Below the pieces are notes generated by a model. The model did not search any database and had not been told where the DNA came from. It saw only the letters and a list, made by a program, of their open reading frames with translations. A program made the position numbers and the translations under genes. A DNA stretch of 61,024 nucleotides, counting the filler, from Dugesia japonica (Eukaryota), in assembly GCA_001938525.1 (NCBI GenBank). It is 6 parts of 6 records of this genome, joined end to end, with 100 filler letters (N's around TTAATTAATTAA, not from the genome) between each part and the next. Parts side by side here need not be neighbours in the genome. Positions count along the whole stretch, not along the records: positions 10,281 to 19,615 come from MQRL01619848.1; 5 more parts are not named here. One strand, given 5' to 3'. Position 1 is the first letter of the stretch. Each line of letters begins with the position of its first letter. Below, in pieces: positions 50 through 40,728 of the stretch.

Positions 50-1533
50 ATTATTTGCGGGCTGAAGTTAATGAGTATATTGAACATTGATGAGACTATT
101 CTTCAACTGTGGGAAAAGTTTCAAGTCTTTTATTATTCATGTTTTTTGGAAATATGCTGCCGTAATTGTGAAGTTTAATATGATTTAATGAGAGTAGTTT
201 TTATAAGGAAATAATTTTAATGTTCACTTTGTAACATTTTCCAACTGGCATACTGACTTCTTCAAACAATCATTGTACTTTGCTAGGACTTTTTCATAAA
301 ACCGCGAGTATCATCAATAATTTTTGTAGTAACTCGCCATTACTTAGGATGGTGATTTATATTTCCAACTGATCTAGTTTTACTAAACTTCTCTACACGT
401 TTGTTGATTGCAGTTCTGTGCGGCACATTATTAATGTAGAGGAAATGAAATACATTTACAAATAAAAGACATACAAAACATATAACATGCAGTATTCGGT
501 GATCGAGAATCAGATAGATTCAGTCAGGAGCAACAATTCAGCGATTTATTTATTTGACAATTTATTTTTGTAATCTGACAATTTATTTCATTTTATTTTA
601 TTTTTTTAATTGTATTTGTAAATAATTTAATGTTAATGGACAATTTATTTCAATGATAAATGAAGACATTTTGTGAAATAAGTTAGCTCCCACCAAGGCC
701 AATAATTAAAGGAAATTGTCCAAATAATAATAAACTGGCAGAAGAAATTAATGTCAGTAAATAATTATTTATTGTAGAAAAATTAATTAATTTAAAATAA
801 AAATAAATTGAAATTGGTCGAAAATTGGTTTTTGGTAATTACCTCTACTCTGCATAATCACAGCAATCTTTGGTAAGAAAATCTGAGAAGAATTGGTGAT
901 GAAGCATTAAGAATTGGGTAATAGAAAATCTTACCACTATCCAGAAGGTTTCCACAGGGATTTGAAGATTTGAAATCTGAAAAAAAAATAAAACAAAGAA
1001 ATGACAATCACATGTAACTCCAAAATAGACACCAATGGCGAATTAGAAAATAGTCAAAAATTTGTAAAAATCCGAGGCTACTCCAATATAATTGAAGAAA
1101 TTATAATTAAAATTAGACAACCAATGGAAACGATACCGAGTTGCATTTAGAAGACTATATAAGCACATGGAAAATTAGTCTAAAAAACAACCAACAACCA
1201 TTTTTTCTTCGATTTAATTACGAGTGTGAAAGACATATTACGCTATAGTATCAGTTTAAAGAAAGAAATAAAAGAAGTAAACTATCGTTATTGGAAAACG
1301 AGTACGAGATCAAAGTAAACTTGAAAAGAAAATTATTTGTGATTAATTACTATATTTAAAAGGAGAACCAAATTAAAATCAATCCATTATTCTCAATTCG
1401 ACATTGCCAATTTGTCAGTATTTAACATGTTGTCAGAATCATAACCCACTCTATAAGTAAGCAATGAGTTTATAATTTTTCTAATAAGAAAATTTTTTTT
1501 TATCGAAACAATTTCATAAATGGTAACTAATAA

Positions 1534-2060
1534 ATGTTCAAAGTGAATGTGTCATTATTATTTTTATAAATATTACGTGCTAAAATCTTTGTTACGACCC
1601 TATTATTCAGTAGCCTAAAAATCTCAGTCTCATAAATAGACATGCTGGTTCTGATCAACGCATTCCAAATTTTCTGCTTTATTGCGACAGCAAAATGAGG
1701 ACATCGTGCCATACATGCCTTTACATCTGTGAATAATTGAATACAGAAACCGGTCGTAAATTTGATAACACAATCTTCGAAATAAAATTTTTATAGGTAT
1801 GTTTACCCGTCTGTTTAGCAATTGTCGTGTTGCATTAACCGTTGCAATGAATGTATGCATCAGTATCAAGCAAAATCGGAGTTACTCAGACTGTCATGCA
1901 TTAATAAGACGTGTATCAAAATGCCGTCGTTGATACACACATGGCTAATTCTCTTGCCCACTTGCATTATCATATTATTATTGTCGATAGGTATGCAGCA
2001 GATTGTTATGTGATAGAAGTTGTGTTGGTTAACTAAGCAACTCTTCAGAGCGGTAAATTA
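1534..2060 (+). pseudogene. Decayed Cys-rich type I membrane protein inside the LTR intron (possibly TNFR-like)
   Basis: Manual translation across stops/frameshifts: hydrophobic N-terminus, YCDSKMRTSCHTCLYICE...VCLPVC...CCINRCNEC, then TM segment WLILLPTCIIILLLSIGM. Confidence 0.35.
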
Positions 2061-2518
2061 AAAATGGAACTAGATATATAATCGTTATTAATTTCGAACA
2101 AATTAACAATTCAATTCACCCTTCTATAACAATTATCACTAGCTGATTCCAACTTTGTTGTTCATCAACCTTAAAGACGACCACAATCGGGTATTTATTA
2201 GTACCGTTAGCAGTGTTATTACGATAAATATTACTATTACAACAAGTGAAACTTTCCTTGCCTAATCCTAAGCTCATATAATTTCTATTAACATTTATTA
2301 ATAGTAATACTATCATCAGTAATGTTTATCATCTTTTGAACCCAAAAGAAGTTATGTTTTTCTATTAGATAATTTTTGTTCAATGAATTGATTTCTTGCA
2401 AGTGATTTAATTTTCAACTAATCCGATCGATAAAATATTCCTCCTACTATACGCTGATTACAATATTATTGACGAAATAGAATAAACCCAATAATAACCC
2501 ACGTCACTGATTTTTATT

Positions 2519-2818
2519 GTGTTTTCGCTAGCTGTACTTAGAATCCAAAAGGGGCAAACTGAAGAGATAATTACTTTTGTTTTAAATGGAGAAAAATGTA
2601 TTTTGATTGCTATATTTATTAGGAAGCCAAGTGGGATGCCCTATCGATTATTAAAAATGCTAAGATTTATTCAAGCCGAAAGGCGTAAAATTCGGAGGAA
2701 GCAGCTTTTAGCACATATCCTTTCTAATGGCATAATTAAACATCCCGACGAAACAGACCTCAGGTGTTTCGCCGAGATGTTCTCGCTACCTTCAAAGGTG
2801 GACATCGATGAGAAGTGA
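2519..2818 (+). CDS. LTR-borne accessory ORF, unknown function (inside the 1523-bp intron)
   Basis: 99-aa open frame, more GC-rich than its flanks. No family recognised. Confidence 0.35.
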   Translation: MFSLAVLRIQKGQTEEIITFVLNGEKCILIAIFIRKPSGMPYRLLKMLRFIQAERRKIRRKQLLAHILSNGIIKHPDETDLRCFAEMFSLPSKVDIDEK

Positions 2819-2980
2819 CAATCGTTTTATCAACGCATTTTGTTTTATTTGTATGAGAATATTAATCTAGATAGATAACTAGTTGTAATTATTTTCACTC
2901 CTATTCCTATTTAATCTATAAATATCATTATTAATAACATAAATTAAACCAAGAAAAAAATTATGTTTATTATTTGCAGA

Positions 2981-3481
2981 ATGGAATATCTTTGGGAAAC
3001 GCTGTTCGATCGTCGAACGAATAGGGTAATTTATAAACGGTATTAGAATCCTCATGATCGTAATGCAGGGGTCCTTACCTATTACTCCAACATGGCTTCC
3101 ATCGACGCGGAAAATGAAAGAGAACAGGCTGCGTCCGAACGCCAAGCCTTTTACGAATGGAGAGGTCCCGACCGAACCCGCGAGGTCACCCATCCGTAAA
3201 CCAGGCGGGTTACGAGCGTGTGGCGTGACAGGCCTGAATTTATCCCTGTATCGGCCGCACACGTGCCACCACGCATGAGATTGAGTAAAGAGATAAGCAA
3301 TACTCTTTGGTACTTGCGGAATAGTGCAAGTGGTGGGTTGGCGGAGAATAATGCTCTTTATTTAGTCGACGAAAATCCATAGTTTCAAATAGACTCTTGT
3401 TCTATTATTGATAATAAATTCTGTGTAAAAATAAACTTAGTTACGTTCTTTTTAAATCTGTTGTTGACGGGAATATTATAA
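2981..3481 (+). pseudogene. LTR accessory ORF A (~170 aa, MEYLWETLFDR...)
   Basis: ATG just after the TTTGCAG acceptor. The same frame is present at 41822-42340, with stops at different positions in the two copies. Confidence 0.6.
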
Positions 3482-3565
3482 ATAATCAAATAAGAATAGA
3501 AATTTTTGAGGATTTTAATGTTTTAGTTTGAAGGTATTTTAACAGTCATAATATCTATATTCCAG

Positions 3566-3926
3566 TGCACTCATCGTTAAATAGACTCTACCAGACTCTA
3601 CCAAGAAAATAAGGGAATTCAGTGAAGACATTGAGATGTCTTGGGAGCTGCACCGATTACCTATACGGCGATTTGAGACAGAGATGGCCACTGCTAATGC
3701 CAAAGTGAAGCGATACCGGGCCAAATGTGTCCACATCCGCAAGGAAATTGAGGCTTCGCACGCTCAAGAGAGAGTTTGGAAGTCGCAGGTGGAATCCTTC
3801 GCAGAAATGACCCGTTTCAACCATGACCGAGAAAATAAACTGGTCAATGACATCTTACTCCTCAAAGAAAAAATGCCTTAAGAGCCTCTCATGATTGATA
3901 AAGGTACCCAAACGACACGTCCATAA
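3566..3926 (+). pseudogene. LTR accessory ORF B, coiled-coil protein ending in DKGTQT
   Basis: RRFETEMATANAKVKRYRAKCVHIRKEIEASHAQERVWK... is conserved at 42426-42785. Preceded by a TTCCAG acceptor. Confidence 0.6.
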
Positions 3927-4094
3927 TTCAGGTTGTTATATCCCATTTTCATAAATAAATATCGTTCAGGTATTGAGAGTTGTCTCTGTTTACTAATCTT
4001 CTTCTAGTTTTGTTATAATGATAAATATTGGATATTAATCCTTACATAGTATATAATGATGATAATTTCTCTTTAAAAGTCACTCCATCATATT

Positions 4095-4342
4095 CTCAGA
4101 GGAATAAGCTGATTAAGAAATTAGACATAAAAGTCAAAAAGCAAAACGACATACCCGAGCCGGCAAAACAACTCCTGCAACACAAGGTCAAATTTTTGAA
4201 ATGGTATATTGCCGACCTGTCCCCCCAGTTAGGCAATGAATTGTATCTCAACTGGGTTGATCAGGATGACCATTTAGTATTCGATTTCATACCCGAAGAG
4301 CGTACCCAGTGGTTAGACCCGGGAGCTCTAGATGAAATATAG
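4095..4342 (+). pseudogene. LTR accessory ORF C (C-terminal part)
   Basis: QRNKLIKKLDI...AKQLLQHKV.FLK.YIA is shared with 42952-43305. Confidence 0.55.
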
Positions 4343-6264
4343 GATAGAAACAATACAAGTTATTAGCAATCTGTGTTTATTTTTCGATACTTTAAAATAA
4401 TAAGGAAATAGCTACTGACCCGAACCAAAGGTGTACGAGTGTGAACTTCGCATGAAGTTGAAGGTCAACTGCTCTACACTCAATATCTAATTTGGGGACA
4501 TTAGATCTAGATTCTTGTCTGGTACACCTGATGGCTGTTTTTCCCAGACCAGTTTTTCTCTCCATTATCAGCTCAGGAGAAACCCTAACATTAATAATCT
4601 TTTGTTTAAATTGTTCAATTTCTTTTGACCCTCAGGGCTTGAAAAATGATATAAATATTTGTATATATAATGTCACTAAGTGTATTAATTAAAATTAATT
4701 AATCCAATTATCAAAATAATAAATAGGCTAAAATCATAATGAAAATTATTTTATGAATTCTTATCATAAATTATCTGAATGTAGCTAATTGAGAACACAA
4801 CAAAGTTTACAAAATGTTATTAAAGATGAAACAGTCTAGATAACAAAAGAAATAAATTGAATGAATCAAGAAAGGAATTAGAAATAATGGGCTCGTGAAC
4901 AAAAATCAATAAAAGAGTCAACCAAAAGGAGATAGTAATCAAATAAATATTACCAAATTATCAATGAATTAATTAAAAATGATTTAATAAATCCTCAAAT
5001 TAAAACTAGAACGAGAAAATGAAAATGAAGAGGTGATTGATATTAAAGGAATCGTATATATTCTTTAAAGAAATAATTATTTCAAATGAAATAAAAGGCT
5101 CATAAATAAAGTCGAATCGATAATAATAACAAACAGAGTTTCAAGAAGTAATTATTAGAATAAACAACCAATTAAATAAATATTGTGTAAAGAAATAATG
5201 ATCAATTAGCAAAAAGAGATCAAATAAAGCCATCAAAAATATGAACAATAAAAGGGACCAAAACAAAAGCTTAATAAATAAAAAAAATTTGTACTAAAAG
5301 AATTAAATGAAAATATTTGAAAAAAAGAATATTTGATCATTGAAATAAAATGATAAAAGAGGAGAGTAAATTGATAATTGAGATATGACGATACTCAATA
5401 AAGTAACAATAATTAACGGTAAATATCAGAAACTTAAATGTGCCTCGCTCAATAAAAAGAAAGTTCGAATTAATAATAATTAAATAATAACTGAATGAAA
5501 TAAATTATACCAGAAAATGGTGAGAAATAATAAACTAAGTAAAAACGAAACTGGAATTGGAATATTTTAAATATTTTTATGTATAATTTATATAAATGCT
5601 ATACCAGCAGAAATATAATGAAATAAGTATTATAATGTAATAGAATAATAAAGTAGAATTAAAACAAAAGTATTATATTAAAATATTGTAATAAAATAAA
5701 GAGAAATGATCAAACTTAAATATGGAATAAATCATTATTATTATTATAATTAATCAAGAAATTATTAAAATCGTTATTATTCAATTANGAAAATCAAATT
5801 ATTATAAGTATGTATTAAAATAAGAAGAATGTAACATTATTATTATTTTGTGATAAATATTATTAATTTTATTATATTCAATAAATATTTTTTATTTATG
5901 AAGAAAAAAATGGAATTATGAGGCCAGAGTTATATGTAATGAAAGATAATAAAAAGTTCAATTAAGATATTAAATTATTTATACTTGTTTATGTAAAGTA
6001 GTAAGACATGTCAGCATGACCGCATTCCCCCCGGAGAGAAATTTTTTTTCGATTTTTTATTTTTTTCTGATTTTTTTTTGAATTTTTTTTTATTTTTGAT
6101 TTTTTTAAGGTCATCAATTTTTTTGTTAGCGTCAGTCAAGGTAATGCGTAGAACTACTGAATAGAGAATTAAAAAATAACAGGAATGTGTAATGAACTTA
6201 TATCGTAAAATAACTCTTTCCCCATTAAAAAGCATTGAAATAATTAATTTGATTACGTAATCAA

Positions 6265-11099: not shown

Positions 11100-11640
11100 A
11101 GAAATGAAACTATTTCTTTTATTTCCTCAAAGAATTTCTCCAATGGATCTCCAATGACATTGTTACGCCACATAAATTCATAAAGATAACCTTGTAAATA
11201 TTATTTTCTAATTCCTCACATTTTTTTACAAAGGGATTTCTGTTTATTCTCATATGATTTGACATCCTGGGTATGAGCTCCAATTTGAGGTTTAATAAAG
11301 TCCATTTTATGATTAACTGTCAGTTGTTAATCTCCCAGAGTAGCAAGATAACAATAAGTTCTCCACTCATCACTAGCGATAATGCTACCTGGACGCACTA
11401 TCTGAGTAATTATTGACAATAAATTATCAGCTTTTCTATCAGTTACCACCTGCATAAATTCTTTAGCTGAAACATAATAATATCAAATACCCAAATTTGA
11501 GAATCTGAAACTCTACCTCGATAATAATTTTGCTTATGGCAAAATATGCTGCTGGGTGACTGATCTCCGGTCTTAAAAGTCAATTCCTGAAGAAGACTAA
11601 GTCGAAATATCGAATTGCTATCAACTACCAAATTATAAAA
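11100..11640 (-). mobile_element. Merlin (ISXO2/IS1595-like DDE) transposase relic
   Basis: KQNYYRGRV..QIWVFDI, IVRPGSIIASDEWRTY, TVNH..F..P..GAHTQ, LQGYLYEFMWR, with stops and frameshifts. Confidence 0.8.
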
Positions 11641-12375: not shown

Positions 12376-13362
12376 ACTTTCTCAACAATCAAATTAATAT
12401 AAGTTATAGTAGGAATGATTAACTTATCTACTAATTATAGAAAAATAGCCAGACTTAATTTTAAATGAAAAGCGATGGGTTTGCCAGTAAACAGTTCAAA
12501 TATTTTAGTCTTAAATACAATTATAATTTCCATTTAATTTATATCGAGTGAGTAAAGTTATCATAGAGCGGAGTCTGTGAAACGAAATCAATTTTAAAAG
12601 AGTAGTTGAATAAAATAAAATAAATTAGTAAACAATACTACTTATAAAGAATAAATGAAATGCTTAATAAATAAATGCATTTTCAATTGATAATAATCCC
12701 ATTGTTTTCCACAATCTGTACCATGTTACCTTTAGTTAGAATTGTTTCTTGCATAAATTTTTGTATAAATCTTTGTAAACATTTCATAAATAGAGTAACA
12801 CGTTTAATCTAAAACGGTTTAAAGAGAGAATTGAGTAGACATCAAACAATTAAATACTACTATATTGTCACCAAGTAAAGGAAACTTTGGTAAGTGGTTA
12901 GTAGTGGATGCTAGCTCACGGGAACAGTACCCCCAACCGACTGTTTCGGCGTTTTGGTTGTTTTGATGTTTTTTTATTTGTAGCATTTTGATTGGGCATT
13001 CCGAATATATGAAAAATTATTTCAAATTCGGGTCGAAACGGTCAAAGTTTAGCTCAGGGAATGTCAAATTGTGAAAATTTGTATTTTACATTTTTCTGTC
13101 AAATTTTATTGTATAGTTTCGATTTTGATGTTGATCATCACAGAATTGAAAGGTGAACATTTTTTATATAGGGTTTTAGTAGATAGAAAGGAAGACTCGG
13201 GAACAGTTAGGGGTTCCAGCCGTTGCTATAGCAACGAAGACGTAATAATTACGTAATAATTTTGTAGATAGAGTGTAGTCATTACGTAATCATTGGTAAA
13301 AGTTGCGTAATAATTACGTAATCATGACACAGTTGTCCCAAAACAAATTCTGAATTGTGTAA

Positions 13363-13826
13363 TCAATGCCAAATTATTAGATTAACAATCAGATTTTTTA
13401 CATCCGATACTATCAAGTCAATGTGAGGTTGATAATGTAATTTCCTGATTACAACCGTTTCAATGGAAAATATATTTACAGGATTGGATTATATATTGGA
13501 TTATATTTTGTAAGTCGTAATACCGAAAACAATTCTGGTTCATACACACACTTGGTTACTTTGGTTAATTCATACAAATTAATTGTTTGTTTCAAATTGA
13601 CTACAATTGTTAGCGATTGTAATTAAAAGTTCTTGAAATTGTATTGTAAATCTTTTCTTTCCAATGGTTTTCTACAGCTTATGATTCGAATATTTCCTGA
13701 ACTAAAGAATATGATTGTATATTTACTGGATTTTTCAACAACTTGTAATGATTTGCTAATTGGAAAATTAATTTTTTTGTAACTTCTGGTGAAATTGTAC
13801 CTATATAATCAATAATTTGCAATCAT
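13363..13826 (-). pseudogene. Polinton-encoded TATA-binding-protein (TBP)-like gene, frameshifted
   Basis: Manual reverse translation: KYTIIFFSSGNIRIISCRKP (cf. TBP repeat 1 TALIFSSGKMVCTGAK) and FKNF*LQSLTIVVNLKQTINLYELTKVTKCVYEPELFSVLRLTKYNP..VNIFSIETVVI (cf. repeat 2 [24 protein letters not shown]...[30 protein letters not shown]). Confidence 0.78.
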
Positions 13827-13905
13827 TATTTATGAAGATGCTTTTTTATATACATGTATAAATAATACTAGTTTAATTGAAACGTTTAAACAAGCAATAG
13901 TTATA
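13827..13905. promoter_or_regulatory. Putative bidirectional promoter between the TBP-like and ATPase genes
   Basis: 79-bp spacer with TATATAAAAAAG on - and TGTATAAATA on +. AATTGAnACGTTTAAACAAG is also conserved upstream of the second ATPase (40697-40717). Confidence 0.45.
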
Positions 13906-14506
13906 ATGGAATTAAAAAATGATGCTGTATATCAAATTGTTAGTCCAAGTGGTAGTGGAAAAACCTTATTTGTATGTAAATTATTCAAATCAAAATTCCA
14001 TAACATATACTGGCACAGAATAGCAGATGAAGAGCATGGACTAACTAAATCTGAGTTCAGAAATATTAAAATGAAAATTATAAATGTATTTGATGAGAAA
14101 TGGAGCAATAAATTAAGTAAAGGTGATGTCATTATAATTGACGATCTGTATCACGAAGCAAACAAGGACTTTAACAATTTATTTACAAAGATATCAATAC
14201 ATTGTAATGTGACTGTGATATTCATTACTCAAAATCTATTTCACCAAGGGGGGTGTCATAGAATACGAAATTTACATGTGCAATACCTGATTATATTTAA
14301 AAAATCCTCGAGATCAAACAGTTGTTAATTTTCTAGCAAGACAAGCGTATCCGAATAATATTCAATTCCTTATGGATGCATTCAAAGATGCCACCGTAAA
14401 TCCTCATGGATATATTTTTGTAGACTTTACACAAAAATGTCCAGAAGATCTTAGAGTGCGAACTGATATTTTTAATCCAAAAGGTGTTACAGTATATAAA
14501 CAATAA
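13906..14506 (+). pseudogene. Polinton A32/FtsK-like DNA packaging ATPase (frameshift near 14305)
   Basis: Walker A SPSGSGKT, Walker B IIIDDL, VIFITQNLF. Continues in the shifted frame as FLARQAYP...PHGYIFVDFTQ...RVRTDIF. Confidence 0.9.
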
Positions 14507-14531: not shown

Positions 14532-14803
14532 ATGACGAAACTTACTAAAGCTGTAGTTGATCAAATAAAAAGAAAGAATCTTGAACAAAACAACATTCAA
14601 TCTAATTTTCAAATGTTCATGATATCAAACCAATAAAGACGTCAAGAAAGACTAAGAAACAATCAAAGATTTGTATCAAGAAACGAAGAAAGACTGCTAC
14701 TAAGAAACCATCAAAGAAAAAACAGTTAAGAGAGTTCAAAAAACTATCAAAACGCTTTGGATAGAAACTTTCAAACGTAAATGGAAAGTGGATAAAGCTA
14801 TAA
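14532..14803 (+). pseudogene. Small basic K/R-rich Polinton protein (candidate DNA-condensing core protein)
   Basis: MTKLTKAVVDQIKRK.../KTSRKTKKQSKICIKKRRKTATKKPSKKK, frameshifted. Confidence 0.45.
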
Positions 14804-14845
14804 ACAAATAACATGTGCATATATATATATATGAAAATAAAAATT

Positions 14846-15206
14846 ATGAAATTTCAACAAAGTCTTCCGTTTTTTAATGCGTTGCTTAAGATTTCCAAAG
14901 AGCTGAGAGTGAAAATTTTGCAGTCATTCCCATCTTTTCTAATTAATGATCTACTAGAGATTATTGTAAATGTGGTTCGAGGTATTGTAAGTTTAAGCCA
15001 AGCTAGAAAGCAAGCATTAGAGAAGCATAAAAAGACATTATTATCACTTGTTCATACCAAAAATAAGAGATTAATGAGAAAGGTTTTTCATAAAAAAAGA
15101 AGGCTTTATAGCCGAATTACTGTCAATTGTATTAGCAGCATTGGGATTAGCAAATTTTACATACGAAATGGGTAACTTGGAATCATTATCACAAATTTAT
15201 CTTTAA
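14846..15206 (+). pseudogene. Conserved small Polinton virion protein with C-terminal (G)GF amphipathic helix
   Basis: LLEIIVNVVRG...LEKHKKTLLSL, then frameshifted KEGFIAELLSIVLAALG, like the QxGGF-ending Polinton core proteins. Confidence 0.6.
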
Positions 15207-15229
15207 TTTATATCAAAATTGTTGTAACG

Positions 15230-16217
15230 AACAAAATCGAAGGTATATAGACAGATCCAAAAAATCCAGCAGGGTTTTAAAGATTAGAAAAATTATGGAA
15301 AGCAACAAAAAATTCAAAAAGCGAGACGAAAAATTGGCTATTAAGTCAGCTGGCGTACAGTCTAAACAAACCAATGTTGAAAAGATTTCCAACTAGAGCG
15401 TACAAAACATTTTGTATAAATGATTTATGGCAAATGAATTTGATACAAATGATTCCATATTCAAAGATTAATAAAAGTTACAAGTACATTTTAACATGTG
15501 TTGATATATTAAGCAGATTTGCGAGAGCTATTCCTATCAAATTAAAATCTGCCATTGAAATGAAGTCTGCAATCAAATCAATGTTGAAGGATGAACAGCC
15601 AAATATTTTACAAACTCATTTAGGAAAAGAATTCTACAATTCAAAAGTCAGAAATATTATTTCACATTTCAATATCAATCATTATTCTGTCTTTTCACAA
15701 TACAAAGCAGCATATGTTGAGAGATTTAATCGGACATTGAGAGATAGCTTGAAGAAATACTTTGTGCACACTGGTAGTAAAACATGGATACATGTGATAC
15801 CAAAAAATAATTGATAGTTATAATCATTCAAATCACAATAGATTAAATGGTGCGAGACCTGTTGATGTATCATCTGATAATTCAATGAAATCATAGCTGT
15901 TGAGACAACAACCAAAAGAACTTAAAAAACTAAAATATAAAATTGGTGATCATGTTAGAATATCAAAGATATCAGCATCACCATTCATCAAGAAATTTAA
16001 TAGTAATTGGAGTGATGAAGTGTTTGAAATAAAAAAAATCGATACTAATCAAAATCCAATAATGTATGTAATTAAAGATCATGAAGACAATACCATAGTA
16101 GTAAAAATTATAAAAACAAAGGGAGTTGGAAAAGTTAAAGAATTATATGTAAAGTGGCGCGGATATGAAAAACCTTCTTGGATACTAGCAACTCGATTAG
16201 TCAATTTAAATGAATAA
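15230..16217 (+). pseudogene. Polinton retroviral-like (rve) integrase with C-terminal chromodomain-like region
   Basis: YRDPKNPAGF, DLWQMNL, YILTCVDILSRFA, LQTHLGKEF, KAAYVERFNRTL, YKIGDHVRISK, NWSDEVF, LYVKWRGY. Confidence 0.9.
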
Positions 16218-17205
16218 TTTCTATACAATTTTACCAAGCAATAGTTGTCCACTTATTCATCCAGATAATAAAGCTAGTAATTTCAATGTCGAGTTTCAAG
16301 ATCCTATTAATTTGATTGGACAATAGCAAGTAGCCATGTTGGATTTCACATTTGTATATTCCAAATTTCCATTTTATAGTAAATCAAAGATTAAATATGG
16401 TACAAGTCGAGATGTATCAGAAAAATTGCCAATTACAGTATACAAAAATGAAAATCGTATAACTATCACTGCAAATAGTATTCTTAAAGTAAATGGTCTT
16501 ACCAATTTGAAGATTAATTATATACATGATTCATATTTCATAACGTTTGATACAATTGAAAATGCCAAAAGATTTGGATTTGAAAATCAGAGAAACTGGA
16601 TCAAATATAAACATAATCTCAAACCTCAATCGCTTAAAAACAATCAATTGATAAAACCAATTGTGATTAAAGTAACATATTCTGTAATAGTTAAGAGAAG
16701 AAATACAATTCAAAGATGATAGAATTACTTTATAACAAATTTCTCACAAGTATTTGACTCTTTGGTTTTAAACAAAAACGAGTTATTTATTTTCAAGGTG
16801 CAAGATAATGTTAAATGTATTCGATTTGACAAAATCCTGACAAAAACATTCGGAATAGAAAGACAAGAATATCAAATAATAAATCCAAGAATTACAGAGA
16901 TTAATGGTGTGAGAATTCGAAAAAGTATCAACTATCATCAGCAAATGTTTATCTACAGTAACATTGTTGAACCTATAATTGTCAGGGATGTTAAAGTTTC
17001 TTTGTTGAAATTCGTATCGTTGGAGAAATATAACGATGATGAAATTGTTCAGATTATAGTCAAGAATCCAATGTATTTGCCAATTTTCACTTGATGTATA
17101 AACAATATAGAAATCAATATACGAGATAATTGTGGAAAATTAATCAACTTTGCTCAAGACTCAAAAAAACATTTAACTACTCATTTTCTAAAAATCAATG
17201 TCTAA
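16210..17205 (+). pseudogene. Polinton minor capsid protein (penton)
   Basis: MNNFYTILPSNSCPLIHPDNKASNFNVEFQDPINLIGQ*QVAM at the N-terminus. MFIYSNIVEP...KNPMYLP...INNIEINIRD at the C-terminus. Confidence 0.8.
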
Positions 17206-17585
17206 TCTAGATATCCTTAGCATTATATAGTACAAGTCAAGCTGGTGGAAAACTACCACATTTTGTAGGAAAGCAAAATGAATTTGGTTGGTTACAAACT
17301 ATTGGTAGACTTGCACTTCCTATTTTTAGACGTATTGGTGCAATTGGAATGAAAACAGCATAAGATGTAATATCGAATAATGCAAAAATCTTACCAACAT
17401 TAAACGCAAATGCAATGTCTGAATTCAACAATTTTATAACTTCTCCAGAAGTAACAAAAATAATGCCAAAGGACAATACTAAAAATTATTCAAAACTCAA
17501 TGGTGCTGGAATAAAAAGTAGAATTTGAAGTTTAACAAGTATAAACAACCGAATGAAAGAATATAGAACTATATTTGAAAAATGA
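17198..17585 (+). pseudogene. Polinton core protein with QxGG motif and amphipathic helix
   Basis: SQAGGKLPHFVGKQNEFGWLQTIGRLALPIFRRIGAIGMKTA, in the typical position just upstream of the major capsid gene. Confidence 0.65.
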
Positions 17586-18762
17586 TTTGTGGAAAAACTG
17601 AATTGTGTATTTTTGATCGTCTCCTCAAGCTGTTATTGAATATGGGTAATTTAAAACGTGTTTCTAATGAATTCAATATCTGAATCAAGAAATGATGTAG
17701 AGTTTTTTATAAATGGATCGCAAACAGAATATTTGGATTTAAATGATACTTTATTGTATATCCAAGTAAAAGTAGTTGATAAAAATGGAAAGGATTTGGA
17801 CGAAAAATCAAACGTCATTCCTAGCAATTACATATTTCATACTATGTTCAGAGATACTTGGATTTAATAATATTAAAATTGAAGGTGGAAATGAAACTCA
17901 TATTCAAAAAGCATTGATTGAAAGAAATTTGAATGATAATGGAGATAGTAAGAATATTTGTCTTTCTACAATTGGATATGGAGATAAAGATTATAGAAAA
18001 TTTTCCATTAAATCATCAAAACCATTATCTCTCTGTAGTTCTTTGCAACTTGATTTCATGGATCAACCAAAATATCTAATTCCTACCATTAATGTTTAAA
18101 TTAGAATGAAAAGAGCACCTTCAAAAATGTGTTTAGAATCAATAAATGATGAACCCAAATATGTATTGTTGGTTGCAAAATTGATGGTTAAACGTGTTAG
18201 AGTTGAATCATTGGTATTCTCAGGTCACCAAATTGGATTACAAACTCAAAATGCAGTTTATCCAATAAAAACCAAGGAAATTGTAGCATATGCAATTAGT
18301 AAAGATAGCACATCATTTTATAAAGAACAAATCTTTGGCGATCGTCGATTACCAACTTTATTCTAGTTTCATTTTAAAGTGGAGAACAGTATAATGGTAG
18401 TTATAAAAGCTCTAGTTCCGGATTCAATCATTTCAATGTTAAATCAATAACTCTATCAAAAAGCAGTGATTATCGAAAAATATATTCCCAAGACTTTACA
18501 AATGATAGTTATAGAACAACATATATGCAATCGTTAGTTAGAAAAAAGGGATATCTAAACAAGAATATGAATTATGAAATAACACTTGATGAATTCAAAA
18601 CCAAGTATCCATTCTTTACATTTGTAGTTGCTCTAGATTTTGAAATTAATCAAAGTCAATTGAATCAACAAAGAAATTTAAGATTGGATATCAAGTTTAA
18701 AAGTGCATTGATTGCACCCTCATATGTAGTAATTTATGGGGTATTTGAAAATGAAACTAAAA
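17582..18762 (+). pseudogene. Polinton double-jelly-roll major capsid protein (PY)
   Basis: KTELCIFD, VEFFINGSQTEYLDLNDTLLYIQVKV, LQLDFMDQPKYLIP, AKLMVKRVRV, AVYPI, LRLDIKF...VVIYGVFEN. Confidence 0.88.
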
Positions 18763-19615
18763 TGGGACAACATTGATGAAGAAGAATATGATGAAGCAAA
18801 ACAAGTATGAACACAATATAGTTGCACTAATCTCTTACAGTATATGCTAATATACATAAAACTAGACATATACCTGCTTGCCAATGTTTTTGAAAAATCT
18901 AGAGCACAAGTCAAAGATCAGGGTAGGTTTGAAATAGCAAACCTTATATCAATACCAGCTTTAAGTTGGGCAACAGTGATAAAAACATGTCCTGTCAAGA
19001 TTGAATTGTTACAAGATCCGGAAATGTACTTCTTTTTCCAAGCTGGAATAAGAGGAGAAATGACCTTTGTGAATAAACATATGGTACGTGCAGATGAAAG
19101 CACAAGTCTGCTTTATATTGACATTAACAGTCTGTATGGTTGAGCTTTGAGTGAACCGTTACCATATTGTAATTTTGAATGGATAATTGATGAAGATCAG
19201 CCGAAGACTATGATAGAAATATTGTCATATTTGGATATGGAGAAAAACGAATGTGGATTTGTTTTTGAGGTAGACCTATCAATTTCACTTGAAAAACATA
19301 ACAAATTAGACTAACTGCCACTTGCTCCAATTAATCAATGCCCACCAGGAAGTAAAGTTAAGAAATAACTTTTGACACATGAAGCAAAACAGAATTATGC
19401 TATACATTATCGGCTGCTTTAATTGTTAATGAAACTGGGTGCAAAAGTACATAAAGTTCATCGGGCGGTAGTGTTTTTAAGCGGCTCTGTTTTTAAGTCA
19501 TATATCGACTTTAATTCAGAAAAACGAGCTCAATCTACTAACGTCTTTGAGAAAGACTTTTTTATATTAAAAATGAAAAAATTTGGAAAACCTGTTGAAA
19601 ACTTATTAAAACGTA
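18763..19615 (+). pseudogene. Protein-primed family B DNA polymerase fragment (N-terminus deleted)
   Basis: LDIYLLANVFE, AGIRGE, LLYIDINSLYG*A, GFVFEVDL, LPLAP, KSYIDFNSEKR...FEKDFF..FGK..EN. Confidence 0.9.
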
Positions 19616-21571: not shown

Positions 21572-24500
21572 TTTCAACATTTTTGCCGCATCAGTCCATC
21601 GATTTTTCTCTCCTCCAAGTCCTCCGATTAATTGTTCGGCTCTGTCTAATTTCTTGCTACAAAGTTCAATGTTGTCTTCCAAATCTTTTTTACGTTGTTG
21701 AGTTTCATCGAGTTGATCAGTTAAGTCTTGAAGTTTGGCCTCAACTTCATCGAGTTGGGCTTTTTTCTCTGCTAATTGTTTCAACTAATTAATTTTAAAT
21801 AAAATAATTAAAAGAAAAAATTTTTACTGTTATTTCTAATTCTTTTTCTGCAGCTACTAATTTTATTTTTTTAGGAGCAACAATTTTCGAAGCAAAATCA
21901 TATTTATCCATTGCAAGAATCCATTTACAAAGACCTTCACACGCTGTGCTAGCGTTACGTACAATTTTCGGATCGAAATCTGGATCTGGAATGTATTTTT
22001 CTCTTAATTTTTTCATTGCTTGTGGATTCACCATATCAACATTGAAGGTCTTTAATTTTTCAAGGAATTTAAAATCACCAAGTAATTTAACAGAAGAAGT
22101 CCAATAATCTTCAATCATTTTCCCGGTTGCTGTATCTGGTTTTCTTTCTGGTTTTTCTCCGAGCATGATGCAAATAGCTTCCATTACTAATTTTATTAAA
22201 CCTGGTGGGTTTTTCATTGACCTTACTAGAGTGATATCCTGTAAAATAATTGAATAGAAATTTAATCAACAACATTTAATAATAATAATAAAAATAAACA
22301 ATCATTGAAAAGAAAAGTAATACAAAATATTACGAAGAAATTCTCAAATTTGTANGTATTAGAAATGTTTCAAGATGTAAAGGAGAAAGATGTATCATGG
22401 ACTAAAACACATATGGACGAGATCAGCACAATTTAAATAATAAATTTATTAACTAATTCAATAAAGTTTTATAAATAAAATTATTTTTAGAATAATATTT
22501 GGCCTAAACAATTGATAAAATTTCTTTTAAAATTTTTAATAAAAATAATTAGCGAGGTCATGATTTTGTTTGTAAAGTTCATAACTGATAAAGATTTTAT
22601 CTGGGAATAAATTTATTAATAATATATTTTAATTAATTTTGGTGATTTCGCGAATCTTTATATATTCTTAGTATCTTTCAAAAAATCCAATTATAATATC
22701 ATTAGTATTTTAAATTGATCAGTGTGGATTAATCCGTCAAAATATTTTGCATTCAATGAATTAAATTTATCATCATTTTTCCAGTTATAATTTCTAATGT
22801 GTTTTACAAATTTGTGACTTCATTAGATGCGTAGGAAAGAAATATTTATTTCAGTTACTGAAAGTCAGTATGACTATTACAGGCTTGCATAATGTAGTTA
22901 AATGGTTGTGAGAAGCACTGATAAGAGTTTAAATAATATATTTTCATAGAAAAGCATAAATTTAAATTCCATAAATATTTACATTGCAGTCGACTTTTAT
23001 TTCATGGATTCTAAACCACACGAACTTAACAAGCACAATACTACTTTGATCAAAATATACCCGGTCAACCCAATTTAAAATTCACGCAAATGCTATAGAT
23101 GTAATTCTTATTTTTAATAGTCGCTACATATTTGTTTTACTACATCACCAAATTTCAGCTGAACAGATCACGTCAAAACGAAATTAAACGTCCCGATACC
23201 TTGAAAATGCTACAAAAGTGCTATGGCAACAATGCTTTATCAAAATCAACAACTAATGAATGTCTAATAAAATATTTTAGTTGTTTAAGTATAAATAGAA
23301 AATAAAAAAAGTTAAAATTAAAAGAAATCTACTAACGTTTTGTTTTAAAGTATCCAGAGACGCTATTGCTTCTCTTAATATTGGCATAGCTTCTGCTAAA
23401 TCTGCTTCACAATCATCTTTTATTTCTTGACTAGCTGCAGCTTTAACATTAGCTTCTTCTTGTTCCGCTGCCATTATTTCACGCTTTGCCTCTACTTCAA
23501 CCGTATCTTGTTCTACTTTTATCAATAGTTTATCAGTTTGAGCCGATGTGACAATCAGTTCCGGTTGAAGAGCTTTTAGCTCAATTTGCATTTTTCCTAC
23601 TTCTTTAGCAGCAAATTCCAATTTATCTAAACCAGTTAAATATCGATTTCTTAGAGTAATCAATTCGTTTCTTTTGAAATTCAATAACTTTTTAAATGTT
23701 TTAATCAATTCCAAATACGAGGTAGGAGTTACGTAATTATATCGGCGAAGTGTATTTAAAAATCTAAAGAATATTTAAAATACAAGCACTATTTAATAAA
23801 AGAAAATTCTACTTACTCTTCAGATAATTTTATTACGCTTTCATGATAGAATTTACACATTATTACAATAGATTCTCTTGTACTTTCATCCATTTCAATG
23901 TCTTCCAAGAATTTGTTAGCAACCATTTCCAAAGCATCTTCCGGCCACGCCTGTGATTTAAAATAACAATTGGAAATTTAAAAATACTAATTACTTGAAA
24001 CCAATCAATCGTACAACAGTTAATAAGAGATGGAAACATTCTTAACCTATTTCTGAATGCATCTCCAATTGGACTCATCGCTAGAACAATATGGAGATTT
24101 TGTTTTACTCTTTCAATGAAGTAGTTATACATGGCCATTGGTGTTGAATCGATTTTTCTTCCCTGTAATTAAAATTCAAATAATCTAACGAATCAGGGCA
24201 CAAATTAGAAGAGAAGCATATATGATTATAACTGTCCATATAAAGAAGTTAACTTTATTATTGGCATTGGCTTTATTATTTTTATGTTGAATGTATTTTT
24301 ATTAACGTTAATAATAAAAAATTTATTTTACTATTTAATATTGTGTTATTTTATGAAAGAAATTGGTGGCTTTTGAAATCTTTGTATTTTTCATAATGTC
24401 ATATTTACCTTTATTTATTAACTTTATACATTAAAAATTGATTGCTAAAAATAAAATATTCATTAAACATAAAGCACGTATACCAAAAAAATTTTCAATA

Positions 24501-27431
24501 ATTTCATTTCAAATACACAATTTAATCAGAAAATTCTGTGAAACTGTTTGTGTTTATTAATTCAAGAAATCATTGAAAACATTTTCAAAATAAAATATAA
24601 AAGTTGCATAGATGTGAAGCAAATAAACATATTAAGACAAAATATTACAATTATACCATTTATAATAGCAAACTGGAATTATTTTAGTGTTTTATTAATT
24701 GGATTTTTATTCACTTACTAGTTAATATAATAAATCGTTTGAGGCACGGTGGTATTAAAAATGTCCCACCTTTTTGATTCGTAAAAATGCAATAAACTTA
24801 ATTGAATTATTATTATTTCTTTTATATTATGATACTCCTTTATTAATAATAATTTATTAAAATTTATTAATTATTATTTTTTTAAAATTCTGTGCATCAA
24901 CGGGTTAACACGAATACTTTTTAATTGTACGATTACTTAACTATTTAATCTAGATTTTTAACAGTTGTGTAAAACTACATTTCAATACTTATGCATAACA
25001 TGTTATAACATATCACCAACAATCTCAGTCTCTCAACTAAATTTTGTCGATCTAGCATCGTCTCGATTATTATCAACATTTACACAACCAGAATTCAAAA
25101 AGTTTTCCAATCATTAGTTTATGCTTATCATTAGAATAAGTTAATTTAAACGTTAATTTGATTTATGAAATATTATNNNNNNNNNNNNNNNNNNNNNNNN
25201 NNNNNNNNNNNNNNNNNNNNNNNNNNNNNNNNNNNNNNNNNNNNNNNNNNNNNNNNNNNNNNNNNNNNNNNNNNNNNNNNNNNNNNNNNNNNNNNNNNNN
25301 NNNNNNNNNNNNNNNNNNNNNNNATAATAATAATAATGATAATAATAATAATCAAAATAAATAAAGCGACACACATGCAAAAGATATAAAATTATAAATC
25401 AAATGCCGTGTTAGTGATAAAATAATATTGCAAGAATAGCGATATATAGAATAAACTCACAGTTTGTTTTTCCTGGAAAAATAAATAATTAAGTACAATA
25501 ATAACAATAGTATATTACTAAAATGTAATAAAATATTTACTTGGCTTGATTAGCTATATAATAATAATATTTGTAAACCTACGGAAAAATTAATTAATTA
25601 ATGTATAATTAATTAATGTATACTTCAATTAATTTATAATTTGTTATACATTAATCTTTATATTATTATTTGTCATAAATAAAAACAAAGGTGATAAAAA
25701 TCAAAGATTATTCATTTACTCCAATACTTCTATAAAATGACAGCATTTCTCACAGAGAACGCGCTTGTGTCTATCCAAAAATTGGCATTAAATGAAAATA
25801 TTAATAGTGTATGAAAACATTTATTTATTATATAAGAAGTGCAAGATCTAAACATTTTCATATAAAACATTAGATCAGAGATATAAACAAAGTGCTCGTT
25901 ATCGTTGGAAAATACAGTACTATATTATCTATAAAGTGATAACTAATTTTGTTAAAAAACTAATGTTAATAATTTTATAGTAATTCTAGGAGTGAGAAAA
26001 GATATTTTAATGCTAATTTGAATAAATATACCTCGATTCTAGCCGCGTTTTGCATTTTTTCTAAAATTTCAGCTTTTTCGTCTGATGGATATAAATTTGG
26101 AACATCACCTGTATTAAGAAGCATGGAAACATCTTCCATAAATGACTCTTGTTTTATTTGATTGTCAGAGAAAAGAAAAACTAATGGTTTAGCATCACAA
26201 CCTGCTTTAATTAATAATTTCTTTAAGTCATCTCTCCATTCATTTTGTCCATAGTTTCTAGTTATTTCTATAATAAATAATTCATAGTCAGCCATAAAAG
26301 CTGCCATTTTAGTTGCACTTTGTCTGCCACTTCCTCCAATACCTATAAAAATAAATAATTATATTATATTAATTATATATAACTGTTAATATATAAATAT
26401 ATTTGTTTTCCATCAATCAGTCATTTCTCGGTGAACGCAATAGAAAATACTATTCATATTTATTTGTAGATAATATTATTAATTATATACAGGGTGTTTA
26501 TTATGTATGTTAACATATTTCAATTTTAAATATTCTAATAAATAAGAAAGATAAAGTCAGTAATAGTTTATTTTTGAAGAAAATTTATTTTAAAGAAATA
26601 CCATATTTGATTGCATTACACCCGTCTACTGGGGGAGAGGAATTAGGACCATCAAAGAATTAAGGCCGACCACGTATTAATTCTTAATTTTTGGTTGGTC
26701 TTAATTCCTTATCCCTATTATATAAACAATTATCAAAGTCATCTTTGCCGAGTTAAATTATTGTGATCGGTTTAAATGAGTAAAAGTCTGCCTTTTTAAC
26801 GACATTAGAGTAACTGCTAAAATTTTTGTCCGGTTCGAAAGCGCACCCCGAAGGGATAAATTGTCCAATCATTTCTCAAACCTTTTGGATAACTTCCTTT
26901 GTTGCAATCTTAAAAGTTCGGTGTGATTTCATTTCTTCTTCCAAAATGCTGGTTTCCTTGAACTTATCAACGATTTTTTATCGTTTGTCTAATTGGTAGT
27001 GTAGTAATAAAATTATGTTTCCACTTCCTGATCAACTCTGAGAATCCTAAAATTTGGTATTTCAGAAAATAATTTGAATTCTTTCTTCAATAGAAAGTTG
27101 GATANTCATTGTTTTTAAAAAATAACAAAATTTATAATTAATCCATATAAGTAAATTATTAATATCTGATTCTAATTCCTTGCAATTTGAAATGAAAGTA
27201 CGTAAACATATAGTATTATAGTAAACACCATATTACACTAGGATTTATTTTACTCGTGTCCTTTATGACATGTTACGGGATAGTAGTAAATAAAGAAATT
27301 AACTCAATCAAACTATTTAATTGTTAACAAATATATTAATTATAATTTTTAATATTTAATAGATCATTTATGAAATTTTGTTATGTACTTAATTGAGCCT
27401 ATTTTTATGATAGATATATTTAGTGGTTAGC

Positions 27432-27469
<38 letters not shown>

Positions 27470-27903
27470 AAAACAATTCATTTGTATACCATTTCATTCA
27501 GACATAAAAAATAATAATTTAGTTATTTACCAACTAAGAGTGCATGACCATTATCTTGTTTCATTACTCGACAAACTCTTGAAATATGCTCCATCGCAAA
27601 CTGAAACATGACTAAACTCATAGGAGCTTTACTAATTGCATTGTATTCATCAAGATATCCTTCCATTCGTTTTGCAAGATCTTTGATATTTGTAATTTCA
27701 TCATAGATTTTATCATCAGTCATATAATCCCCGAAAATCAATCCTCGAACATCCTCATCTACAACTTTACCACTCAAACTTAAATGGCCAAGAATCTTTT
27801 CTATGTTTGTTTTGAAACAATCTGCAGTTGTTAACTTTACAATATCAAAAAATTTCAAACGATCTTCTTCCATTGTTAAACGATCATAGAAAACCCGATA
27901 AAC
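21572..27903 (-). CDS. DNAH3: Axonemal inner-arm dynein heavy chain, partial (AAA3 end, AAA4, stalk/MTBD). Exons 27903-27531, 26342-26032, 24162-23995, 23950-23817, 23763-23337, 22238-21828, 21784-21572
   Basis: [34 protein letters not shown]|[84 protein letters not shown] boundaries keep the frame. DNAH3 versus DNAH7/12 is judged by resemblance only. Confidence 0.9.
26490..27228 (-). mobile_element. Mariner-like relic in a dynein intron, with a small nested palindromic insert (26632-26716)
   Basis: TA|CAGGGTGTTTA end. Reverse translation [10 protein letters not shown]...IVDKFKETS resembles a mariner HTH. Confidence 0.55.
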
Positions 27904-33500: not shown

Positions 33501-34017
33501 AGATGAAACGGATTTCGCAGCAAATTTCAAAGAAACTATGCAGAAAATCTTGAAACAAGCCAAAGAAAATGTAGGCTTCTACCAAGAAAGTTGCAAAGAT
33601 TTGCATGATAAAACCGCAGTTCAACATGCATATAAGAAGGGCGACATGGTATTAATCAATTTACGGTATATTTACGTCAGTACTACGTCAAAATTAAAGA
33701 AGCCTTGGCAAGGGTCATATGAAGTAATCGAGGTAACTAAAATTAACCTCAAAGTTCGGAAAAAAGGAAATCTCTTAGAGAAACCTAAAATCTACAACGT
33801 CAACTTATGTAAAAAGGTCGCAACAACGGATGAAATTACTCCAGCCACAACTGCTGCACCAACTACGTCAGAACATAGAAGACCAGATAGACCACGTAAG
33901 TCAAAAGATAAGGAAGTAAACACCTCGCACAGTTACCCATTACGATCACAACAAGCTATGATGATACTCGGAAAATTATCAACACCAGTATTCGTACTAG
34001 GTCAGTTAAGTCAGTGA
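30560..34017 (+). pseudogene. Gypsy pol: protease, RT, RNase H, integrase (core largely deleted near 33275)
   Basis: ALLNTGA (PR); SPWQSPVVLVDKKDGTQRFCIYYRRL, LDIRSGYWQI, YIED (RT); TDTSGYAMGAVL, YSTTERE, YTDHLP (RH); H..H..YYWPHM..CQIC (IN zinc finger); KPWQGSY. Confidence 0.92.
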
Positions 34018-37000: not shown

Positions 37001-37117
37001 CGACATCTACCGATAGCCCCACCAATCTACGAAGGATTACCACTTCGGGTGATATCGAACAAATTATCCACATATGTGCCTAGACCCTATCAGGCACCGG
37101 GGGTAATGACTTGCTGA
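33958..37117 (+). pseudogene. Post-integrase env-like membrane/glycoprotein region, decayed
   Basis: Cys-rich segments (34100-35060), hydrophobic helices near 35490-35750, Thr-rich stalk at 36591, and TM VSIVVFVLITIYLQFC followed by a basic tail with PPIY. Confidence 0.5.
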
Positions 37118-37230
37118 ACAAACATTAAATCTGTGTAAATAGTGTAAATTATGATGAAAACAATTACATAATGACTATATAAACATGTAATTATAATGAG
37201 GTATTAATTAAATTTTCACATTCAGACAAA

Positions 37231-37800
37231 ATGAGTGTTATCGAAAATGAAAATGAATATTCAAATATGAGTACAAATGAAGTGATGGATTCGCAAAGTG
37301 ACACAGAAAGCTCAAGTACAACAAGCCATATATGTAGTAGTCATGCAAGAAGCCTTACCCGAATAAGCAATAATTATAATACCCTTTCACAAGTGACGAT
37401 AAATGAAATATGGAAAAATCATAATGAAGAAATGAAAGAACTATGGGATAGGGCTCAAATCCAAACTCATTAGACACAACAACGATTGGAAGTGTTGGAG
37501 CATAGCCAAAATCAATTACTCAAAACTATAATACACACGAAACCTCAAGATTTGAATGAGCTGGAGTTTAAAAACAAAGTCCTACAGTTGCAAAACGAGA
37601 ATCTATATGCAGAAACCCTTATGTGTCGGCAACAAATAGTAGAAAATCGACGAATGTTGGAAACCACTACAGAAAAACAGAATTATGCAATGGAATTATT
37701 AGCCAGACAACATGACCTAATTTCTAATAAGACAAGAGAACTAAAGGAGTAGTAGCCTCACAAAAATGGAAAATCGAGACACTCAACATGGAGTGCTCGC
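37231..37800 (+). pseudogene. Accessory coiled-coil ORF of the Gypsy element
   Basis: Ser-rich N-terminus, then heptad-rich LEFKNKVLQLQNENLYAE.... One in-frame stop. TTCAG acceptor just upstream. Confidence 0.55.
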
Positions 37801-39892: not shown

Positions 39893-40728
39893 AGTAGATA
39901 GATAGTGGCAGTCCGCACCACGCACACATTCAGTAGTCCCCCCCGCCATGACGTAATGTAATGAAATTTAATCCTAATGTATTTAGTTGGGAATTTAAAA
40001 ACTACATCATTAGGTAATAGTACTTAATTTGGTGTTAAATGCCAGAAAATAATCAACTTACTTTTTATTGTTTATAGACTGTAACATTATTTGGATTGAA
40101 AATATCAGTTCGAACTCTAATATCATCAGGACATTGCTGTGTAAAATCAAGGAAAATATATCCATGAGGCATTACTGTTGCATCCTTAAATGAATCCAAT
40201 AGAAATTGCCGATTATTTGGATAAGCTTGTCTTGCTAGAAAATCAACAATAGTTTGGTCTCTTGGGTTTTTAAATATAACCAAATATTGAACATTTAAAT
40301 TACGTGTTCTATGATAACCACCTTGATGGAATAGATTCTGTGTAATGAATATTACAGTAACACCACAATGTCTTGATATTTTTATGAATAAATTATTAAA
40401 GTCTTTTTCTTTATTGGCTTCTTGATACAGATCATCAACAACAATAATATCACCTGTTTTCAATCTCTTGCTCAAGTTGTCATCAAATCCAATAATTATG
40501 GTNNNNNNNNNNNNNNNNNNNNNNNNNNNAGTCATTCCATGCTCCTCATCTGCACCTTTATGCCAATATATTGTATTGAATTTCGATTTGAATAAGTTTG
40601 ATTTGAATAATTTACACACAAACAAGATTTTTCCACTACCACTTTGTCCAACAGTTTGATATACAGCATCATTTCTTAGTTCCATAATAATTTATACTTG
40701 TTTAAACGTATCAATTGAATTAATATTG
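39893..40728 (-). mobile_element. Second Polinton fragment: AGTAGATAGATAG terminus plus packaging ATPase (40065-40685)
   Basis: ATPase GQSGSGKI/IVVDDL/FITQNLF/FKNPRD is clearly homologous to the 13906 copy. The terminus is shared with 1-49 and 40902. Confidence 0.88.

Follow-up and report, generated by a model that had tools for sequence, protein, structure and literature searches.

The window analysed here, a stretch of 61,024 nucleotides joined from six parts of the Dugesia japonica assembly GCA_001938525.1, contains the remains of a Polinton in the contig at 10281-19615. The left end and subterminal region of the element lie at 12900..13330 on the plus strand and start with AGTAGT, AG/AGT ends being a Polinton feature; this end is supported by a step in the summed contig depth of three DNA runs, which climbs from 12-31 to about 400 at 12892-12955. 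Just within the left end are three perfect palindromes, TTACGTAA, at 13249, 13282 and 13314 (all inside the 73 bp of 13249-13321), and the whole window holds 8 of them against 1.3 expected; we take them to resemble PAR/ATF-type bZIP sites. There follow a broken gene for a small TATA-binding protein (TBP) at 13363..13826 on the minus strand, a spacer of 79 bp at 13827..13905, and an A32-like packaging ATPase at 13906..14506 on the plus strand (Pox_A32, E 3e-4), whose frame is broken near 14300 and which is 62-70% identical to the ATPases of the closest related loci.

The remaining genes of the element are all on the plus strand: a small conserved ORF of cluster C3 at 14813..15175 (34-49% identical to the C3 ORFs of related loci), which from its position likely encodes a virion core protein; a broken retroviral-type integrase at approximately 15167..16217 (rve, E 7.4e-6); a broken minor capsid (penton) candidate at approximately 16211..17205, matched by tblastn to cluster C13; a broken small conserved ORF of cluster C18 at approximately 17198..17530, recognized from the C18 of relatives and likely another core protein; a broken candidate at approximately 17582..18776 that is likely the major capsid protein gene (tblastn, 41-54% to C8 of the closest loci); and an internal fragment of a protein-primed PolB at 18811..19615 (DNA_pol_B_2, E 1.5e-7), cut by the contig end; the right terminus of the element falls outside the contig. 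The capsid and penton candidates are syntenic conserved ORFs with zero Pfam matches, and the likely name of the latter is taken from synteny and from known motifs. All genes of this Polinton are decayed: the pPolB and the rve integrase are both present as broken fragments, the packaging ATPase is present, and an adenovirus-type cysteine protease, found in relatives (Peptidase_C5, E 8e-4), was not found in the window's partial element. The PolB starts abruptly after the capsid gene on the same strand (18776-18811) but is convergent in loci L003 and L012, so the window copy has been deleted or rearranged.

Elsewhere in the window there are a Gypsy-type retrotransposon (protease, RT, RNase H and integrase zinc finger) within 30598-38703, followed in an A-rich stretch by an ORF with a BIR (inhibitor of apoptosis) domain (38218-38703, E 9e-17) that may be retroelement cargo; intron-split exons of a host dynein heavy chain gene at 21795-27873 on the minus strand; an ISXO2/IS1595-like transposase fragment at 11300-11560, also on the minus strand (E 2.6e-8); and a dispersed repeat of several kb at 670-4462 and 41282-43425 (86-93% identity), of which a third copy, incomplete, lies near 39000.

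The TBP gene is a pseudogene copy with three frame breaks and one stop. Its segment 13479-13826, with stops written as X, matches the Pfam TBP family PF00352 (E 4.8e-6, 26.8 bits against a gathering cut-off of 22.9), and frameshift-aware alignment to eight intact homologues scores 347-409 (74-88 identical positions among 142-145 codons), compared with control scores of 10 for the plus strand and 20 for the reversed sequence. The start is the ATG at 13826 and the breaks fall near 13813, at 13767-13779 and at 13479-13488 in all eight alignments, while the stop at 13625 is seen in seven, the eighth passing the position by means of a gap; a 3-codon in-frame gap near 13446 also appears in seven of the eight. 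The initial annotation had read both TBP pseudo-repeats on the minus strand as an intronless gene, and this reading holds: the peptides on which it relied share one minus-strand frame at that place, and the alignments require no intron. It had also counted three frameshifts, a stop and a small duplication; the first two stand, but the third break sits at a short tandem duplication, so that the duplication is one of the three breaks and there is no fourth lesion. Contigs from two DNA runs, one possibly the source sample, match 13642-13899 with 0 differences and 13649-13905 with 1 difference, both with no gaps, so the two upstream breaks are real in DNA and are not assembly errors. The window gene is 53-68% identical to seven intact proteins of 147-170 aa, against about 20% to cellular TBP. 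We read it as a defunct member of a conserved Polinton gene family that encodes a shortened protein of the TBP fold.

Related copies are abundant in the host. Contigs of the host species that match 1.9 kb of the element number 4,103-5,093 per run, mostly 80-95% alike and spanning the TBP region, and a run labelled as a second species yields 318 such contigs. In four RNA runs with the same species label, 71-2,268 reads align to the element, most of them less than 90% alike; the TBP region is thinly covered, chiefly by reads from diverged copies, with a depth over its 3' half of about 12 in one run and 1 or less in the others, and with inconsistent strand.

A profile built from seven intact relatives retrieved 523 homologous proteins, of which the best 120 are nearly all of 144-170 aa with PF00352 and the lower-ranked may include canonical TBPs; an index-free (HMMER) search gave 55 matches among 50%-identity representatives. 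The intact relatives score 56.7-63.1 bits against PF00352. An AlphaFold model of the natural homologue P0001 (111 sequences, pLDDT 95.9) predicts a two-lobed, pseudo-symmetric saddle, for which the best VIA-align match has Z 13.1 and an rmsd of 2.6 Å over 148 residues; the top five of 48,161 chains are TBPs (Z 10.9-13.1), with the next match at 6.7. Foldseek on an earlier model gave the same TBP-fold result, and a search of the ESM Atlas returned TBP clusters only. A match to the TBP fold, which the initial annotation had set as a test of its reading, is borne out by Pfam, Foldseek and structural alignment. The family is under purifying selection: dN/dS has a median of 0.26 over 26 disjoint pairs (0.11 for the ATPase), and 357 of 362 pairs lie below 0.5.

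In a tree of 53 of 91 rows, which contains no TRF2/TBPL1 sequences, the 24 Polinton TBPs group as a single clade (100/97) whose long branch stands apart from the animal TBPs. Relative to archaeal TBPs the clade lies on the eukaryotic/viral side (97/98), yet it groups with other long branches; in AU tests, joining it to a flatworm TBP has p 0.058, to four animal TBPs p 0.049 and to archaea p 0.23. It splits into a long-form and a short-form subclade, and the sister relation of the two suggests a stepwise shrinking of the protein. The long form (165-173 aa; L049, L053-L059, L062 and L067) keeps helix 2 of lobe 1, and the elements that encode it carry PLA2X, KilA-N and zinc-finger genes together with a weak Tet/JBP match.

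Linkage to Polintons was assessed on 74 metagenome loci, six of an original 80 (L075-L080, low-scoring, with full two-lobe cellular-type TBPs) having been set aside; L131, a duplicate of L129, was dropped. Taking the ATPase, integrase, capsid, penton, PolB or protease as a core Polinton ORF, such an ORF occurs on 34 of the 74 TBP loci, on 24 of the 32 of 3 kb or more, and on 18 of the 21 of 4 kb or more; a core or shared accessory ORF is present on 32/32 loci of 3 kb or more. Linkage of the homologues to Polintons was the second test named in the initial annotation, and it too came out in favour. The head-to-head arrangement of TBP and ATPase to which the initial annotation had drawn attention is not a feature of the family: among 24 loci with both ORFs, TBP lies upstream on the same strand in 21, head-to-head in 2 and downstream in 1, and a conserved bidirectional promoter was accordingly rejected. 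In other loci the TBP gene follows the capsid and protease block, and gene order varies. Distances of TBP and ATPase correlate (rho 0.66 over 22 loci), driven largely by one deep split common to the two trees. TBP is carried both by loci with PLA2X and by loci without it, PLA2X being described as an Alpha-type module in the accessible text of PMC8502044.

Accessory ORFs (C2, C9, C12, C7 and C11) often flank the TBP gene, and no accessory cluster is common to all sublineages. In L005-L028, GT...AG-like signals lie between the C9 and C2 ORFs, and the two may be exons of one spliced gene adjoining TBP. A ubiquitin-conjugating enzyme and RING fingers also occur as cargo (L012:225-719, L046:1710-2168, L053:13315-13893). 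None of the 92 scanned ORFs matches the TFIIB family, though one of those left unassigned might encode a viral TFIIB that has diverged strongly. Scans of the viral_contigs set with narrow TBP, ATPase, PolB and capsid alignments gave no matches, and other TBP matches in that set are on giant-virus-like or cellular-like contigs, which were excluded from the linkage and motif counts. One of its entries, L081, is filed as giant-virus-derived and is AT-rich with a near-canonical eukaryotic TBP (199 bits); it may be a reduced eukaryotic genome and not a virus.

Residues were counted over 42 family rows, by alignment, with yeast-type numbers transferred from the Hanseniaspora TBP, and the numbered residues are given the roles that we presume for them. 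These roles are supported in general terms by the available parts of PMC12529657 and PMC7221094. The TFIIB-contact glutamates E186 and E188 are kept in 42/42 rows (44 and 45 of 46 in the HMMER-only set), as are the intercalating phenylalanines F116, F190 and F207, while the fourth, F99, is replaced by Pro in 40/42. On the DNA-facing side, V122 is Arg, T124 is Met and I194 is Arg in 42/42 each, L205 is Asn in 41/42, and V71N, N159S, V161T and V203C/S are further nearly invariant minor-groove replacements; this invariance is inflated, since the loci and proteins were fetched with motifs that include conserved residues, and the index-free set shows nearly the same picture. Helix 2 of lobe 1, a basic, regulator-binding surface, is largely deleted in the short form, and in the long form is present with its conserved lysines missing, in agreement with an earlier description of repeat 1 as shortened and divergent. 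The YEPELFP stirrup, the TFIIB-contact site, is among the most conserved segments. Such a pattern is what would be expected if a TBP had altered its DNA specificity and shed a regulatory surface while holding on to its TFIIB dock.

The genes around these TBPs share a promoter-like motif. An unguided k-mer count over 188 de-duplicated upstream regions ranks ATAAAC first (81 occurrences against 12.5 expected), and this core lies upstream of 18/18 ATPases against 1.5 expected from shuffles. The fuller box [TC]ATAAAC[AG] (YATAAACR) is found no more than 120 nt ahead of 67 of 78 genes for virion proteins, the ATPase or the integrase, a count in which gene starts are first-Met calls, some of them wrong, and many loci are close relatives and so not independent. 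By gene, it precedes the ATPase in 17/18 cases, C3 in 10/12, the integrase in 9/11, the capsid in 9/9, pentons in 9/12, C18 in 5/5, the protease in 3/4 and PLA2X in 5/7; two tandem penton-like genes at L012:5616-7684 have a box upstream of each. By contrast, it is upstream of 0/46 TBP genes, which instead have a canonical TATA (19/46) or CCAAT (11/46), and it is mostly missing at other accessory genes (C9 0/5, C16 0/4, C11 0/6, KilA 0/4, C2 2/16, C12 1/7). The box is also seen at non-virion genes, namely C4 (6/9), PolB (1/3) and a cargo gene for an LRR protein (5/5 loci; for example L029:1918-3327). In 12/17 ATPase cases it starts 32-38 nt before the ATG. Inside ORFs it occurs 111 times on the sense strand and 7 times on the other, in all three frames, a bias to which A-rich coding strands contribute; within the end of the ATPase gene it forms NAT-AAA codons in 22/22 complete ends (0.45 expected per copy), where the protein varies (YKQ or HKR) and the DNA box is constant.

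The window element bears five boxes on the plus strand and none on the minus strand, about 1.1 being expected per strand, and four of the five stand at distances known from relatives; across the whole window the box is not enriched (23 against 20.7). They lie at 14495..14502, in the last ATPase codons and 37 nt ahead of the start codon of a short frame rich in lysine; at 14799..14806, upstream of C3; at 16606, inside the penton candidate; at 17097..17104, 101 nt before the C18 start (98-107 nt in 4/5 relatives); and at 17540..17547, 42 nt before the likely major capsid ATG. No exact box is present upstream of the window integrase or penton, and the window ATPase has a one-mismatch variant, TTTAAACA, at 13885 on the plus strand, 21 nt before its ATG. 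The same variant is borne by a second Polinton ATPase copy in the window (40065..40728, minus strand, 75% DNA identity, with a box at 40069-40076), whose contig ends where the TBP gene would be expected. As the initial annotation claimed, the spacer between TBP and ATPase has TATA-like matches on both strands (TATAWAW: 1 plus and 2 overlapping minus, against about 0.35 expected per 79 bp), but in DNA of 28% G+C these are weak evidence, and it is the [TC]ATAAAC[AG] box ahead of virion genes that is informative.

Seven partial Polinton contigs from viral_contigs in which profile search finds no TBP provide a comparison. There the box is upstream of 0/18 genes and 0/24 listed ORFs, and 7/7 ATPases have a canonical TATA; these contigs are incomplete, their ATPases are 24-26% identical to those of the TBP group, and they come from about two distant lineages, so that lineage alone could explain the contrast. 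The contrast is therefore no more than suggestive, and a TBP gene could lie outside those contigs.

From these observations we hypothesize, with a probability of about 0.6, that the viral TBP reads the [TC]ATAAAC[AG] box and drives late genes through host TFIIB and Pol II. An intact TBP gene would be expressed early from a host-type promoter; its altered saddle would prefer the variant box; it would dock host TFIIB through the C-lobe stirrup, and its shrunken N-lobe would escape regulators of the TFIID/Mot1 type; and virion, packaging and integrase genes would be switched on, which would make for a one-protein early-to-late switch. Of the two roles first proposed, redirecting or competing for host Pol II, redirection is tentatively favoured. 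A consideration against this reading is that most viral TBPs pair with a TFIIB of their own, according to the accessible part of PMC7221094. The wider proposition, that a broad clade of animal Polintons uses the smallest known viral early/late switch, is one to which we would give slightly less than even odds. In it a TBP of ~150 residues with re-engineered specificity, expressed from a host-type promoter, would read a YATAAACR box of its own and work directly with host TFIIB, needing neither a viral TFIIB nor a viral polymerase or activator complex.

The strongest competitor, itself unlikely, is that a host factor, be it TBP, a TBP paralogue or a forkhead protein, reads the box, and that the viral TBP is a competitor or decoy tying up TFIIB or Brf1 and thereby dampening host transcription. 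The form TATAAACA is near a canonical TATA box and might be readable by host TBP; the form CATAAAC, which makes up 41 of 120 boxes, is harder to explain in this way. Forkhead proteins have the consensus RYAAAYA, which ATAAACA fits, but the common forkhead form, with G at the second position, is rare (2 occurrences, against 112 with A), and in 20 of 120 cores the last letter is G, which breaks the consensus. The spacing of the box is TATA-like and the box is missing from the TBP-negative controls, both of which argue against reading by a host factor. For a decoy speak the kept TFIIB/Brf1-contact glutamates, of which Brf1/2 use the same one (PMC7221094, as far as its text is accessible), and the loss of one intercalating Phe; against it, the new DNA-facing residues are nearly invariant and not drifting.

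Less probable again is that the viral TBP binds the box as a repressor or latency factor, or that, like herpesvirus vTBP, it depends on further viral partners. Whether regulation is positive or negative cannot be told from a motif being there, and the accessory ORFs that often flank the TBP gene could supply partners; but none of their clusters is common to all sublineages, and a pure blocker would have no need of the TFIIB stirrup that is retained. It is improbable that the TBP fold was co-opted outside transcription, for binding of the termini in replication or packaging, with the box unrelated: TBP-like folds do occur in replication initiators (4cwc, Z 6.7) and the TBP gene often adjoins the ATPase or PolB, but the TFIIB-contact stirrup is among the best-conserved segments, and the TBP gene and the promoter-like box go together. 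A one-off host TBP retrocopy, to which an intronless and broken gene might point, is ruled out by homologues that are Polinton-linked in independent loci and under purifying selection, by their single long-branched clade apart from animal TBPs, by the much closer identity to intact short proteins of other samples than to cellular TBP, and by the related copies in thousands of same-species contigs and in a second species.

The control of Polinton capsid genes and the existence of a true viral cycle are open questions, for which a viral TBP with a matching box offers a concrete, testable switch. What is new is the pairing of a viral TBP with a putative late promoter of its own in these elements, for which the literature searched gives no characterisation. 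If the preferred reading is true, TBP and box would form a natural altered-specificity TBP-promoter pair and direct evidence of a regulated virion-making phase in such "transposons"; the protein would be a compact natural TBP of altered DNA specificity in which the host TFIIB contact is apparently retained, as it is not in herpesvirus TBPs and most of those of giant viruses. The YATAAACR box could also help to annotate late genes of TBP-carrying Polintons.

TBP carriers share with Polintons, Mavericks and adintoviruses the pPolB, the rve integrase, the A32-like ATPase and likely the penton and capsid, and differ from the seven other partial Polinton contigs, in which neither TBP nor box was found. 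The initial annotation placed TBP outside the canonical Polinton genes, which needs one amendment: the Fig. 5 legend of Starrett et al. 2021 (PMC8502044, 10.1101/697771) already labels a TBP gene on the map of a MELD virus, a related element with adintovirus-like PolB. That gene is a legend entry in the section on non-animal datasets, and the accessible text of PMC8502044 holds no analysis of the TBP family, its residues or promoters. In the portions available of the literature on Polinton-like elements this is the only occurrence, so that the family is otherwise uncharacterised there, and supplementary annotation tables may bear on novelty: the main texts of PMC11071296, 10.64898/2026.10.13.758929, PMC11161782 and PMC10748475, as far as accessible, have zero mentions of TBP or TATA, the string TATAAAC has 0 occurrences among the literature matches listed, and 10.64898/2026.06.19.733378 and PMC11131425 name, in the parts available, only VLTF-type factors.

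Compared with cellular TBP (PF00352; yeast 7o4i_O, human 5fur_A and Sulfolobus 1mp9_B), the modelled Polinton protein has the same two-lobed saddle over its full length (Z 12.8-13.1) and shares N69, F116, F190, P191, F207 and the E186/E188/L189 stirrup. It differs in its length of 145-170 aa with no N-terminal extension, in having three of the canonical four intercalating Phe, with F99 replaced by Pro, and at V71, V122, T124, N159, V161, V203, L205 and T215, where the substitutes are for the most part polar; from N69 to F116 it mostly spans 34-46 residues instead of 47, and the lobe-1 helix-2 linker is 15-27 (short form) or 28-32 (long form) instead of 33.

Herpesviruses and large dsDNA viruses are known to encode TBPs (PMC12529657, PMC7221094, in their accessible parts). 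The TBPs of large dsDNA viruses (PMC7221094 and BFVD matches) have, like that of Polintons, a diverged regulatory surface on the N-lobe, but as far as that text is available they mostly vary at the TFIIB glutamates and are accompanied by a viral TFIIB, whereas Polinton TBPs conserve these glutamates and the 92 ORFs scanned yielded no TFIIB. An analogy is offered by the vTBP of beta- and gammaherpesviruses (KSHV ORF24, PMC12529657), which, according to the sections accessible, is likewise encoded by the virus, mimics TBP with a DNA face that is more polar, and reads TATTWAA late promoters via host Pol II. Both systems have a non-canonical TATA variant at structural genes, in Polintons as an association only (67/78 against 0/46). 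In the same source ORF24 is a multidomain protein of a six-member complex that contacts Pol II directly and retains the four Phe but not the TFIIB glutamates, whereas the Polinton TBP is a bare single saddle of 145-170 aa that has kept these glutamates.
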